A DNA stretch of 64,000 bases from Lingula anatina (GCA_051362555.1 CM120640.1:11222001-11286000), one strand, 5' to 3'. Counted from the first letter of the stretch, positions 32,085 through 63,970 are shown. The notes: generated by a model from the letters alone, not told the origin. Translations and numbers: made by a program.

Positions 32085-35000
32085 TCAGCTGTTTGGACAT
32101 TCCTCTGGACGTATACAGCTGTTTTCATGTAATATTCTATCAGCTGAACACTGACAACTGGGAACACAAGGCTTAAAGCACTGGGCCTCGATGCTGCCCA
32201 GTGGCTCATTACGGTTCTCGCAAGTTCTCGGGCATGGTGGGCCGCATTCATCAAATATGAAACCTTGGTCTTCTGGGCAACCAATGGCTGAAATGAAGTG
32301 TTCAGGTTTTATACAATTTACCAGTATAAGATGACATCCATGAAAAATTTAATGTCAATTATTCTTGTTATCAAAGAACCAATTAATACTTAAGTAAGTA
32401 AGCTTTATTTTTATGTTATACACAGAACTTAAAGGGAACATTCTTGCAAACAGCTACTTATGTTGTGACTTGAGTCGAGATGACATGGCAACATTGTAGA
32501 CTCAGCAAGATGAATGTAACAAATAATTCCCATGCAACAAGAATGGTAAATTGTCTCAAAATAGTTAAAATCCACCTTGAAAGAAGGGTCTCATTTGTAG
32601 TCAGACACACTAAATCTTACCACAGAGAGCTGGAGACCTCCAGTTCAGTGTCACTCCTGCCTGTGCACACTCCAGAGCATATGATGACAGCACATCACAT
32701 AAACAGTTCCCTGGGGTCTTGCAGGCACACAGGTCATAGACACAAGAGGCATAGAAAGGCTCAGGGGGGATCACACGATGGCACTTGGAAAACAGTGGTC
32801 CCTGCAATGGTAGATGAGATATATTACACAGTAGACTTATCACCATGTAATCAGATTTATCATTTATGGGAATGGGTTATTTCCATACTGTTGGCTGAAA
32901 CTTAAAAGGGATAACAACTGTTCATTTCAGCCAAAAAATTAATTTTCCTGGTGTAAACGGCAATTTTCACATACTTACCAATGGTTGATGAATCCATTTT
33001 TACATTCAAAGTTAGTCCCTGGTTTTTTTCTCAAGAGTTTGTTTTTTTTTTTTGTAATAATCTCCTAAGAGATTATTACAGAGTAAAGCCATCTGTGGAG
33101 GCCACATGATCCGATGACAAGCACAGATTGCAGATTTATTGCTATAACTGCCATTTTTGTGGTAAAACAATATATTATACTTCTATGAGTTTTTTTACAA
33201 TGTATTTACTGTGAAATAAAGATCTCACACGAAGAGTTGTTATCCCTTTAATGGACATTGCCAAATTGAGTCTTTGCATTATTCAAACAAATCCTCCAGT
33301 CCCAAAGTTATGCAGAGTCTAGGGCATGAAAAATAATCCTCTATTTTTCACGGGGTGGCTTTGTTCTAGACCATTTCTTTGCAATTTAGGCTAAAATGTT
33401 AAATGTGGCAGGAGATGAGTTATATCTACTAGTAAGAAGTTCTTTGCAAGTAGTTTGTTTTGAGACTTTAATACTATAAATCTATATTTGTTTATTACAA
33501 CTGGGTGAGATGGAATGGATTGGAAAAAATCTATTTAGGTTAAGATGCTTGCATTAAAATACCTTTGTTCCTTAATTCCCATCTTTGAAACAAAACAATA
33601 AATGGTATTGTCATGAAAAAGGAATTCAAAAGCTGCAAGAAAATTATCAATGCATCAGTAGAGCCTTTGCTGTAAAAAAATTGCATATCAAGCACAAGCA
33701 TGAGTAGTAGAAAAACTTCACCTTACCTTTAGAATATCACACTTGCTATTGGCCATTTTTCTTGCAGCATATCCTGCTGATATACAAGGGTCAAGGTCTC
33801 TGCCATCCTCACATGGCTGGGAACTGGGTACCTGCAAAATATGAAATAAAAATATCAGCAACATTAACTGACAAAAGCATGCAGTAAAAGTGAACAAACT
33901 CACATAAGAATTATTTTCCCTTTGTGGCAATACTTTTATGAGATCAATTCAGATAAATATATTCTTTTGAATAGTCTTCCATTTTTACAGGAAACAAAAT
34001 TCAAAATGGTAGCCTCTTGCAAATGTCTAAATTCTGCCAACTGATACTTAAATTTATGTGGGACATAAAAGTACCATGTCCCTACCTTCCAACTGTTACC
34101 AAAGACTGCCTCTGAAGTAGCAATCTGTTCATCCCTCAATCTCAGGTCATCCTGAGGGAAGCCATTGAAATTTCCACACAGACCACACATCTTACGCTTG
34201 TAATTACCAGGAACACTCACTTCTGCATAACTATCACCATTCCAAATTACCTGGAATATGTATTGCAAATACCTTTCTAAACAAAACAATTCGGGTAAAA
34301 CTTACGGTACCAGTCTAGGTTCCAAAAAACTATTTTGACATTATGAAATTTAAGAATTATTTCAACTACTCTCAACACTAACAATTCTAACAGTCCACAG
34401 CTAAAGTGTTTTTTAGATAAAGAATTAAATGTCCATCATTCTCACCTTAACTCCAAGATTTGTATTGAGCAGAATGTTGTCACCAGACTGCTCTACAAAC
34501 ACATGTGGTTCTTTTAGATATGGTAAACTCACTGACTGACCATTCACCTATGAATAAAATAAAGTTCATTACGGATATTTCATATAAATGGATAAAGATT
34601 ATACACAATAAAATAAAGAATGATCAACCTGCACCTATGGGGTAGTTGCCACGTACTCAAGCCCCAAATTAATTTCTTCTGGCACTGTAAACATTTGCAT
34701 CATTCTAAGTGGTAAAATGTATATAAATACCAGCAACATTTTACTTCACGGGTCTATATATCTCAAGACTGCAAAATGCTAAAACAAAATTGCAAACTGT
34801 AAGATCATTGGTGTTAATGGTGGCCTTTGTTTTGATAAAAATGTTCTTTCCATGTCAATAAGCAATATGTGAAACCTTAAGATCAATTCTGATAAACTAA
34901 TCTTCAAACCCACATTAAATGCTCATCTTAAAAATTATCACCCATACCTTGACTGCTTGTCTTTGTAGCAACTCCAGTTCTATTCCAGCTATCTTAACGG

Positions 35001-35322
35001 TCAGTGACTGGGCCCAGGACACCCCCTGAACACCTCGGTCATCATGCTGGACTTCAATACTGAAGACAAATGCAAATACCCATATCAAAAACAATGTTAA
35101 TCTAAGGAGAAAATAGTGTCAACGGATCTGTAAATAATTATATTGAGTCATCTACGATATTAAAAAGATACAGATTAATTAGCATGAATAATCTTCTTAC
35201 GTGAAATCTCCAGAGTCACAGTCTGTGGCCATGATGTATTTACAAGTTCCTTGGAAGTGGACCATTCTGCCATCAAATGTACGGTAATGGGGATCACCAA
35301 ATGCTATGCAAGATGCAGGTTC
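32085..35322 (-). other. VWD-C8-TIL C-terminal block of Kielin/BMPER (crossveinless-2) type
   Basis: '[31 protein letters not shown]' (GDPH at 35287-35298). '[17 protein letters not shown]'. C8 '[24 protein letters not shown]...[26 protein letters not shown]'. TIL in the last exon. Confidence 0.9.
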
Positions 35323-62300: not shown

Positions 62301-63970
62301 GCATTCTGGAAACGTTCCAGTTCCTCAGATGTCATATCCCGAATCTCCTTTCTCATGGTCATTGTCACACACCTAAAACAAAGAACAGACTTGTTTGATT
62401 AACCAAAACTGTCATCATTATTGCTTTTGCTATCTACCAGTGTTAAAAGGGAAGCAATGAAGTCTCTCCAAGCCTCCCAGTCCATCACCAAAAAATCTTT
62501 GGGCAAACATAAGATGAACATAAAATTCAGACTAAGGTCTTGTCCACTCATGGGAAATGTTAGACCAAACTCACAATATAAAAAAATTAACAACATTAAT
62601 AATTTTTGAGTACAAAATCTCTGTTCTCATTGGCTTAACACTGTGGTAACATTGTCCTATATTCTAACTGACCCATTGCAAGAGGAAATATTGCTTTTGG
62701 TATCTTTTGGGAAAACTAATATTATCTTATCCAGTCTGTCTACTGAGTCAAAACTGCATGTTCACACATGCACAGCGTAAGTAAGAAAAACAAAACAAAG
62801 TAACCTGCAGTCTATTCCAATGTCCTTTAAGCACAAGCATTCTTGGCAACCAATCCTGAATCTTGTACCATAGGGGAAAGAACTGTTGCCATAGGTACAT
62901 CCTTGAGGTGCAGCACAGGTGTCCGGCTGGCACTGGGCACCAGGCTCAAAGGACACCACTTCCAACAGTTGACCTGGAGACTGGCTGGACATCTGTCTAC
63001 AGTTGGCTAAAGTGTCCACCTGCATATGATGGAGAAAATAGTACAAGATTTCTTACACTGCAAAGTTCAATTTTCAATCATATAAGGCATCTATTTAACA
63101 GTAAGAAAAACCATTTAAACTTGGTGCAATTTTCTCGCAATAAATTGGAAGGAATGTCAAAAATACATTTACGCAAGAGATAAGGTGTTATTAACAGAAG
63201 GAAAACAAATAATTGTGCTATTAGATGCAATGAATGGCCCTGAATTCATGAGGGCAGCTCATGATAAATTCCTGGCTGTAACATACCTGACAAGCCATGC
63301 TTGGCTGAAGATTGGAAACAGATGGAGAGTGAATCCTGTGACAACAAGCACCTAGAGAACACTGTCCTTCACAATCCTCCAAGGTCTGAAAATTGTTGGG
63401 ATTTCCACCACAACCTTGAAAATAGTTTTTAGAATTACTCTTTGTAATGCTTAAATCTAAACATTTTTGATGAACACCTTTCCTGACATCCCAATAGTGA
63501 TGCAACATATGAATATCTTACCAAAGTTTCTACTTGATAATACCATTTTTTATACAAGTTTCAATATGCCAAATGGAACGTGATGAATTTTCTTTATTTT
63601 TTCCCTCTGTTTAAATCTTTTATTGATCTGACACCAATAAGTTTGTTCAAACAAATAATTATATATATATGCAGATATCAACAGTGTAATACCAAACTAA
63701 TCAAAACTTTCTCTGAATCAAGTATGTCAACCATCATGTCTTACTGACCTGTATAAAGGAACTGCAAACACTTCATCTGATATCTGTCAAAGTAGTACCT
63801 GGTAACACTTCCCCCACATGTCCCCTGATCCAGCTCATACACGCAGGGATTTCTTCTATACTGACACTCTGGTCCATAACATGTGGGAGGGCACTGACAT
63901 GTGTAGTTATGGTACCCAGGGTTACTGACACATGTGCCTCCATTCTGACATGGGCTAGACACACAAGGAT
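32085..63970 (-). CDS. Giant Kielin/chordin-like protein (VWC x~33, VWD, C8, TIL) fused N-terminally to two EGF-Kunitz-tyrosinase-like-GYD-repeat supermodules; 5' end outside window
   Basis: Hand-spliced GT-AG exons keep one frame at the junctions checked, including the key joins 53351/53173 and 52986/52611 linking tyrosinase unit 2 to the first VWC. The last exon (32085-32287) encodes TIL '[22 protein letters not shown]...[23 protein letters not shown]'. The most 5' exon in the window (63749-63970) starts in phase 1, so the gene continues upstream. Confidence 0.85.
32907..33247. mobile_element. Kolobok-like MITE (about 340 bp)
   Basis: TIRs AGGGATAACAACT ... AGTTGTTATCCCT. Right flank TTAA, left flank ttaaa. 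Internal palindrome gtaataatctcctaagagattattac. A second partial copy lies at 6646-6905. Confidence 0.68.
35853..36822. mobile_element. Non-autonomous PIF/Harbinger-like DNA transposon (970 bp)
   Basis: About 34-bp TIRs GGCCACACTTTTTTAATTTTATGGATGACATCCT ... AGGATGTCATCCATAAAAATAAAAAAGTGTGGCC. TTA target duplication at 35850-35852 and 36823-36825. CpG-rich interior, no transposase ORF. Confidence 0.85.
49716..49775. repeat. (AAT)n microsatellite
   Basis: About 20 pure units. Confidence 0.95.
53351..55035 (-). other. Tyrosinase-like domain 2 plus G[YF][DN]xx repeats (exons 54868-55035 and 53351-54601)
   Basis: '[22 protein letters not shown]...[29 protein letters not shown]...SIPYFDWS...FHQWVGGHM...[22 protein letters not shown]', followed by '[22 protein letters not shown]...'. 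Confidence 0.9.
55760..56648. repeat. Tandem array of about 6 x 146-bp units inside the HINE-like element
   Basis: The anchor GTTCAGTTCATGGTGAAAAGTAG (or a near match) recurs at 55895, 56041, 56187, 56333, 56479 and 56625, an exact period of 146. Confidence 0.95.
56645..56853. mobile_element. Foldback (palindromic) MITE nested in the HINE-like element
   Basis: About 90-bp imperfect inverted arms TAGTCAGGCGGCTCAGACCAAATTTT...TGGGTGTT / AACACCCA...AAATTTGGACTGAGCCACCTGACTA with a short spacer. TA at both ends. Absent from copy 1. Confidence 0.8.
57884..57949. repeat. Compound (GAT)n(AAT)n microsatellite
   Basis: Read directly from the sequence. Confidence 0.93.
59117..59755 (-). other. EGF plus Kunitz/BPTI domain of supermodule 2
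   Basis: EGF '[12 protein letters not shown]...[13 protein letters not shown]'. Kunitz 'CYLPLNVG(G)[43 protein letters not shown]'. Confidence 0.88.
61402..62372 (-). other. Tyrosinase-like domain 1 plus start of G[YF][DN]xx repeats (single exon)
   Basis: '[22 protein letters not shown]...[27 protein letters not shown]...SLPYFDF...[10 protein letters not shown]...[22 protein letters not shown]'. Confidence 0.9.
63287..63970 (-). other. EGF plus Kunitz/BPTI domain of supermodule 1
   Basis: EGF '[12 protein letters not shown]...[13 protein letters not shown]'. Kunitz '[51 protein letters not shown]'. Confidence 0.88.

Follow-up and report, generated by a model that had tools for sequence, protein, structure and literature searches.

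A long form of Kielin/KCP in Lingula anatina with tyrosinase-like cassettes between its first two VWC domains

Introduction

The minus strand of a 64,000-nucleotide stretch of the Lingula anatina genome (GCA_051362555.1 CM120640.1:11222001-11286000; the whole stretch is hereafter called the window) carries the 3' part of a gene of the Kielin/KCP family, in which tyrosinase-like and Kunitz modules are inserted between the first two VWC domains and do not form an N-terminal fusion. The initial annotation of this DNA had these modules fused ahead of a Kielin body, but they lie between the first and second VWC of one gene. That the gene is KCP and that its long form is real, we hold with high confidence. 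The fusion is not lineage-specific, and the protein is unlikely to be a tanning enzyme. The Lingula gene is likely the ancestral long form of Kielin/KCP, and the textbook protein a shortened form.

Kielin of Xenopus and KCP (CRIM2) of mouse and human resemble the Lingula protein in their LamG-type N-terminus (described in frog), long VWC array and single C-terminal VWD (PMC6750614, PMC7073173). Xenopus Kcp, which consists of LaminG, VWC copies and one VWD, augments BMP2 (PMC6750614), and mammalian KCP, with 18 cysteine-rich (CR) motifs and a VWD, has BMP-7, activin A and TGF-b1 as ligands (PMC7073173). The KCP descriptions given in these two sources mention no tyrosinase or Kunitz domain. In contrast, the Lingula protein has about 1600 additional residues between VWC1 and VWC2, made of two EGF-Kunitz-GYD-tyrosinase-like-Cys cassettes, and about 34 VWC domains against the 18 of mammalian KCP. 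It also has the features by which Kielin/KCP is recognized, namely a LamG-type N-terminus with a coiled coil, at least 18 VWC domains and a single C-terminal VWD-C8-TIL. We know of no LamG domain and no cassette in BMPER/Crossveinless-2 (Cv2). That protein shares the VWC-VWD-C8-TIL body, and its self-processing has been reported, but it is described with five VWC domains (PMC2944808), whereas Lingula has about 34 plus LamG. Of the Kielin/crossveinless-2 body proposed in the initial annotation, the Kielin/KCP half is therefore retained, while BMPER/Cv2, with its five VWC domains, is not the closest relative.

The initial annotation knew of no functional description of this architecture. The combination is noted in passing, in one sentence on tyrosinase sequences of more than 3,000 amino acids with a kielin/chordin-like domain (PMC11667028), and no functional characterization of the long tyrosinase-Kielin proteins was found in the literature covered, which largely excludes subscription journals. 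Already known, then, are the gene, modelled and named in RefSeq, and the combination, in one paper; the function of the cassette is only inferred.

Results

Gene model and module order

Candidate AG and GT sites were listed and exons joined by phase, with every intron GT-AG. The resulting hand-built, minus-strand model has 55 exons in one open frame, from the acceptor at 63970, where the first exon within the window begins, to a sole stop at 32085. It equals, with 11 differences, residues 338-4190 of the Lingula anatina RefSeq 'kielin/chordin-like protein isoform X2' (XP_013412584.1, P0126), whose residues 1-337 supply the part upstream of the window, comprising a signal-peptide-like start (judged by eye), LamG, a coiled coil and VWC1. 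The initial annotation anticipated a signal peptide upstream, a single protein of several thousand residues and an automated 'kielin/chordin-like' label, and all three agree with this start, with a RefSeq model running to residue 4190 and with the names used in RefSeq and GenBank. The single giant frame that it traced from tyrosinase through a Cys-rich exon and VWC to VWD-C8-TIL also holds, with splice sites, phases and modules where it had placed them.

When 20 single exons were compared with Pfam, EGF (2), Kunitz (2), Tyrosinase (2), VWC, VWD, C8 and TIL were recognized and 8 of the 20 exons had no match. Our own profiles, mapped on 32 proteins including 25 animal entries, give the Lingula layout as LamG-CC-VWC-[EGF-Kunitz-(GYD)-short VWC-TYR-GYD-linker-CysX]x2-VWC x ~33-VWD-C8-TIL, where CC is the coiled coil, TYR the tyrosinase-like domain and CysX the Cys-rich module. 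VWC domains in XP_013412584.1 amount to 30 stretches by Pfam and about 34 by our own profile. The features, all on the minus strand and in order of transcription, are as follows.

63749..63970, minus: EGF 1 and first part of Kunitz 1, start of cassette 1 (Pfam EGF, Kunitz; entry phase 1 taken from RefSeq)
63287..63414, minus: remainder of Kunitz 1 (Pfam Kunitz)
62805..63019, minus: short VWC/FnI-like module preceding tyrosinase 1 (FnI_RECK below cut-off; own profile)
61402..62372, minus: tyrosinase-like domain 1, with 3 of 6 copper His, and first GYD repeats (Pfam 2.7e-23; His table; model)
60411..61093, minus: GYD pentapeptide repeats and conserved linker, 2 exons, 61093-60908 and 60650-60411 (translation, own profiles)
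59904..60158, minus: Cys-rich module 1, no Pfam family; end of cassette 1, phase 1 (own profile)
59118..59743, minus: EGF 2 and Kunitz 2, 2 exons, 59743-59576 and 59325-59118; start of cassette 2 (Pfam 9.6e-07, 6.9e-16)
57701..58769, minus: GYD repeats, 3 exons, 58769-58660, 58444-58276 and 57852-57701 (translation; RNA loose end from 57701 to 55443)
55287..55443, minus: short VWC-like module preceding tyrosinase 2 (own profile; RNA joint 55287>55035, 7 reads)
53351..55035, minus: tyrosinase-like domain 2, with 3 of 6 copper His, GYD and linker, 2 exons, 55035-54868 and 54601-53351 (Pfam 1.5e-21; RNA joints)
52986..53173, minus: Cys-rich module 2; end of cassette 2, phase 1 (RNA joint 53351>53173)
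52612..52985, minus: phase-1 intron between cassette and VWC array, 374 nt (phase match; RNA joint not listed)
35503..52611, minus: array of about 33 VWC, 32 exons (Pfam, own profiles, RNA joints)
33727..35321, minus: VWD with GDPH motif and linker to C8, 5 exons (Pfam VWD; GDPH at XP_013412584.1 residue 3870)
32621..32801, minus: C8 domain (Pfam 2.9e-23)
32085..32287, minus: TIL domain and stop, last coding exon (Pfam 6.3e-09)

Two candidate splice sites were discarded: the donor at 55298, because of a stop codon and the RNA joint, and the acceptor at 35345, in favor of 35321 as in RefSeq. RefSeq isoform X1 has 12 additional residues at the 42528>41029 join, where RNA has the direct join (15 reads), and isoform X3 begins at 62992, with an internal Met. 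A 146-bp tandem repeat (55792-56647, 5.9 copies, 95% matches) lies in the intron that separates exons 57701 and 55443.

The cassette as an insert, and its short and long forms

Both Lingula cassettes start and finish in phase 1 (63970-59904 and 59743-52986), and skipping would therefore preserve the frame. Gene models of the sturgeon Acipenser ruthenus differ in just this way: X1 (3293 amino acids) and X2 (2401 amino acids) have 399 N-terminal and 2002 C-terminal residues in common and are distinguished by one clean block of 892 residues, from EGF to CysX, whose end falls at the position homologous to the Lingula intron 52612..52985. Among 15 proteins checked, six (five sturgeon models and one gar) have neither tyrosinase domain nor GYD repeats; the short sturgeon and gar models, of 2401 and 2323 amino acids, can be aligned with the VWC-VWD body of Lingula at 43% and have the layout published for Xenopus Kcp (PMC6750614).

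Relatives and shared architecture

The architecture is found widely among animals. Searching with the Tyr2 exon retrieved hemichordate, spider, shark, teleost and Salpingoeca proteins with Tyrosinase and Kunitz, and a shark tyrosinase-like domain retrieved 17 long proteins (2902-4925 amino acids) from sharks, rays, chimaera, coelacanth, sturgeon, newt, tunicates, bivalve, argonaut, scorpion and Lingula, every one with Tyrosinase and VWC. Further members, from amphioxus, crinoid, horseshoe crab, limpet, annelid, crustaceans, smelt and additional choanoflagellates, came from an exhaustive search. Long models named 'kielin/chordin-like protein' by automated pipelines (sharks, Latimeria, Huso, Pleurodeles, Limulus, Argonauta and others) share the Lingula architecture. 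The initial annotation stated that vertebrate Kielin/KCP carry no tyrosinase or Kunitz domain, yet a tyrosinase-like insert is present in models of shark, ray, chimaera, coelacanth, sturgeon, paddlefish, smelt, newt and axolotl. Vertebrate models have one tyrosinase-like domain, and two occur in those of bivalve, argonaut, scorpion, spider, hemichordate and tunicate. In tunicate orthologues (P0128, P0129, P0134), 13-18 EGF repeats precede the first Kunitz.

Within the 25 animal entries, 20 reach VWD from tyrosinase and 23 join the Cys-rich module to VWC. The C-terminal part of the Lingula protein is of Kielin type: its VWD-C8-TIL is 58-61% identical to vertebrate 'kielin/chordin-like' models (the comparison used these models, with frog and mammal sequences outside it) and 56% to a partial chimaera model, against at most 37% to VWDs of FCGBP/zonadhesin type. 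At the N-terminus, identity to vertebrate models is 24-27% for LamG and 37-52% for the coiled coil with VWC1. Querying with the shark VWD region yielded 120 multi-VWD proteins, of which almost all were of FCGBP/zonadhesin type and none was KCP. In searches restricted by length and clustering, none of the matches was named as a protein of frog, amniote, cnidarian or sponge.

RNA support for the fusion

Reads were taken from seven of nine listed raw-read runs labelled Lingula anatina (about 6-26% of each, tissues unknown), and the region 36000-55750 was compared. Reads over the exons derive from the minus strand where libraries are stranded, and depth is low in all seven runs. At least 23 of 34 introns in this region are listed as RNA joints, among them 55287>55035 (7 reads), 54868>54601 (2+3) and 52532>52428 (5+1). 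In a focused listing 10 of 12 introns appear, and 52986>52611 and 50228>49497 fall below the listing threshold at a depth of about 1-3. Of the two joints on which the initial annotation made the fusion depend, 53351>53173 is thus seen (4+3 reads, in 2 of 4 runs), and 52986>52611 is not listed. One loose end consists of six reads that leave exon 55443 and continue in exon 57701, at its end. Intronic 55582-55750 attracts hundreds of reads and 36000-36825 tens, running on into unrelated sequence; these stretches are likely dispersed repeats transcribed elsewhere.

The joint below threshold bears on the possibility, which we regard as very improbable, that the cassette and the VWC-VWD exons belong to separate transcripts or that the cassette is mostly skipped, the fused model being an annotation artefact. 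Gene models that end at the cassette (Ptychodera, Metynnis) and the cassette-free short models of sturgeon and gar would fit this explanation as well. However, the 374-nt intron 52612-52985 contains no AATAAA/ATTAAA and, as the initial annotation also noted, no signal peptide exon; RNA depth is similarly low on either side; the alignment is continuous through the CysX-VWC join from arachnids to newts; and VWC1 and VWC2 of a single gene flank the cassette. Read-through into this intron halts after a few codons. Together with the missing AATAAA/ATTAAA, the 52986>52611 join has indirect support in the phase match, in the RefSeq model and in the same join in other animals.

Tyrosinase-like domains with a broken copper site

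The type-3 copper site is defined by six His (PMC3658974). The Lingula domains share Pfam family PF00264 and the fold with type-3 copper proteins such as alpha-subclass tyrosinases, Streptomyces tyrosinase (1wx2) and human TYRP1, but differ from the enzymes in that three of six copper His are absent per domain and in sitting within a growth-factor modulator. Read against a reference six-His Salpingoeca domain, Tyr1 has Y,R,H/A,H,H and Tyr2 has H,Y,H/S,H,Y. Across 44 animal rows the number of copper His ranges from 0 to 4, and vertebrate rows have two (10 of 13) or one (3 of 13); in the choanoflagellate clade, all six are present in 6 of 9 rows, two of those six being near-identical. The initial annotation considered a tanning or metal-related fold; with the copper site broken in every one of the 44 animal domains, a tanning role is unlikely.

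The four-helix tyrosinase fold itself is kept. The Tyr1 model has a pLDDT (predicted local distance difference test) of 87.5 and a pTM (predicted template modelling score) of 0.83, and superposes on Streptomyces tyrosinase 1wx2 with Z 29.5 and a root-mean-square deviation of 1.8 A over 230 aligned residues. Tyr2 is assigned to the fold by sequence only, the model of a partial Tyr2 exon having a pLDDT of 50.5. Tyr2 is nevertheless strongly conserved: between Lingula and shark, coelacanth, sturgeon and newt its identity is 55-56% (smelt 44%), compared with 58-60% for VWD, 37-45% for VWC and 24-27% for LamG, and it has clade-specific near-invariant residues. Cys-rich module 2 is 53-59% identical to vertebrate models. 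Since half of the copper-binding residues are missing, these domains are likely binding modules rather than enzymes; losing the copper site while staying strongly conserved is what would be expected of a pseudo-enzyme that serves in binding.

Another reading, quite unlikely in our judgment, is that the domains hold a remodelled single-metal (Zn or Cu) site, with redox chemistry or sensing that would couple BMP control to a metal or small-molecule signal. Tyr2 retains the third CuA His and a His next to the third CuB position in 26 of 28 rows each, and among its near-invariant residues are two gained His, at residues 1509 and 1569 of XP_013412584.1 (each in 27 of 28 rows and in 0 of 30 domains with six His), set in a fold that is predicted to be intact. 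Teleost and crustacean rows, however, have only 0-1 canonical His (Arapaima 2), and the subset of His retained by Tyr1 differs from that of Tyr2.

Choanoflagellate relatives and the proposed origin of the unit

Choanoflagellate membrane proteins (Salpingoeca rosetta EGD81306 and EGD75879, S. urceolata, Hartaetosiga balthica) have the same module order and are sister in the domain tree, but differ in having a C-terminal hydrophobic segment, no VWC array or VWD, and mostly six His. All seven mapped proteins of this clade follow the order Kunitz-GYD-short VWC-tyrosinase-linker-Cys-rich with one C-terminal hydrophobic segment each. Entries with a six-His tyrosinase are P0081, P0157, P0159, P0148 (Salpingoeca), P0151 and P0154, most with the hydrophobic segment. 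A published survey found no type-3 copper protein in Monosiga and calls the membrane-bound form metazoan-only, leaving Salpingoeca unmentioned (PMC3658974).

In a quick 89-row tree, support was 99 for choanoflagellates, 97 for animals, 92 for Tyr1 and 100 for Tyr2. A 65-row tree, from which 24 rows had been dropped (long branches, near duplicates, fragments and some outgroup rows) and in which 21 tyrosinase-like matches served as outgroup, gave choanoflagellates 100/100, animals 93.4/100, animals plus choanoflagellates 96.8/100, Tyr1 99.6/100 and Tyr2 100/100. Tyr1 and Tyr2 clades each contain protostomes and deuterostomes, and the duplication is therefore older than their split; vertebrate rows are all Tyr2. 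From the unit's distribution we infer the direction, an older unit captured by Kielin. A Kunitz-GYD-tyrosinase-Cys unit of the animal-choanoflagellate ancestor would have entered Kielin, after which the copper ligands would have been lost and the duplication would have taken place before protostomes and deuterostomes separated; jawed vertebrates would have retained copy 2, and the studied frog and mammal forms would be without it.

GYD, Kunitz and VWD modules

The Lingula GYD regions contain 42 G[YF][DN] motifs, 24 of them with Tyr, at five-residue spacing in 26 of 41 gaps. The Pfam Decapeptide family PF25296 matched no window exon at E<=0.05; in non-animal proteins recruited by the repeats it matched 2 of 3 scanned, one above cut-off. 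ESM Atlas gave no usable match for the GYD part, which the fold searches barely probed. GYD pentapeptide arrays also occur in many unrelated bacterial or metagenomic proteins (P0005-P0120), often beside UvrD-like helicase domains.

This Tyr content would suit a mainly structural matrix scaffold (shell, periostracum, cuticle) cross-linked through its GYD repeats, with BMP modulation secondary, which is close to what the initial annotation had proposed and which we consider improbable. VWC-only 'kielin/chordin-like' contigs rank as the most abundant proteins of the argonaut eggcase and occur also in Lottia and Crassostrea (10.1101/2021.07.10.451900), and Xenopus Kcp nulls show valve matrix defects (PMC6750614). 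A shell or periostracum scaffold, however, leaves unexplained why the cassette is retained in shell-less sharks, newts and tunicates. In addition, the low RNA depth in all seven runs does not favor it; 'Kielin' and 'KCP' appear 0 times in the text and one supplement of the Lingula genome paper (PMC4595640); and GYD repeats alternate Tyr with Phe and are predicted to be folded, with isolated bridges (pLDDT 63-87).

Both Lingula Kunitz domains have the Kunitz fold with six Cys. In canonical inhibitors such as BPTI the P1 residue and the loop length are conserved. Counted over the rows that match one pattern, both Lingula domains have Gly at P1. Lys stands there in 4 of 14 animal rows, namely the ones whose loop carries an insertion, and Lys/Arg in 4 of 5 choanoflagellate-clade rows; because P1 is Gly in Lingula and variable in animals, as against Lys/Arg in the choanoflagellate clade, protease inhibition by animal Kunitz domains is doubtful. 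Self-cleavage of the Cv2/BMPER VWD takes place at GDPH, a motif present in 18 of 19 VWD-bearing species models. The furin motif R-x-K/R-R is absent from XP_013412584.1, and furin release of the cassette was rejected on this ground.

Neighboring genes

On the plus strand, a many-exon coiled-coil gene at about 11800-30745, which we take to resemble CEP290 (Pfam gave no such family), is convergent with kcp and ends about 1.3 kb from its stop. A one-exon open reading frame at 7460-7924 on the minus strand encodes an SCP2 sterol-carrier domain (Pfam 7.9e-28), and the final exon of a gene with an LRRK2-type beta-propeller (Pfam 1.1e-06) lies at 4253-4621 on the plus strand.

Discussion

What does the long form do? 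We lean towards a secreted BMP/TGF-beta modulator, in which the cassette may serve as a non-catalytic tether or binding unit removable by splicing. By analogy with frog and mouse KCP, the VWC array would bind BMP, activin or TGF-beta and shift signaling towards BMP. The VWD would self-cleave at GDPH as in Cv2/BMPER and remain disulphide-linked. The cassette, with no furin site flanking it, would remain attached and tether the modulator to a partner in the matrix or on the cell surface; its inclusion or removal by splicing would toggle between a tethered long form and a short form of Xenopus type.

Several observations weigh against this proposal and the history behind it. Many VWC domains do not bind BMP (PMC2944808), and no functional data were found in the literature for invertebrate or long-form KCP. 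The homologous long forms are all automated gene models, and the Lingula joint 52986>52611 is below the RNA listing threshold. The absence of the cassette from frog and mammal rests on published domain descriptions and on searches limited by length and clustering; in the same searches, cnidarian and sponge members are absent by name, which leaves a gap on the path from choanoflagellates to bilaterians. Animals plus choanoflagellates reached only 86 in the 89-row tree, and the two near-invariant His gained by Tyr2 would leave room for a new metal site.

A bolder account, rather unlikely as a whole, would extend the modulator proposal: a pre-animal cell-surface copper oxidase unit, intact in choanoflagellates, would have been captured by Kielin and become a conserved pseudo-enzyme with a new His metal or ligand pocket, giving splice-switched, matrix-tethered or ligand-sensing BMP control kept for more than 550 million years. 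If true, such a layer of BMP control would have been missed because the frog and mammal clones are without the cassette.

The family also offers a case of enzyme-to-pseudoenzyme change with an intact choanoflagellate outgroup, and these likely inactive domains are among the tyrosinases that studies of shells and adhesives count by Pfam. Kielin/KCP of frog and mammal is known as a VWC-VWD protein, and the long and short isoforms can now be compared in sturgeon, axolotl or shark. The Kielin of the bilaterian ancestor was likely up to 1600 residues longer, with a pseudo-tyrosinase as conserved as its VWD.

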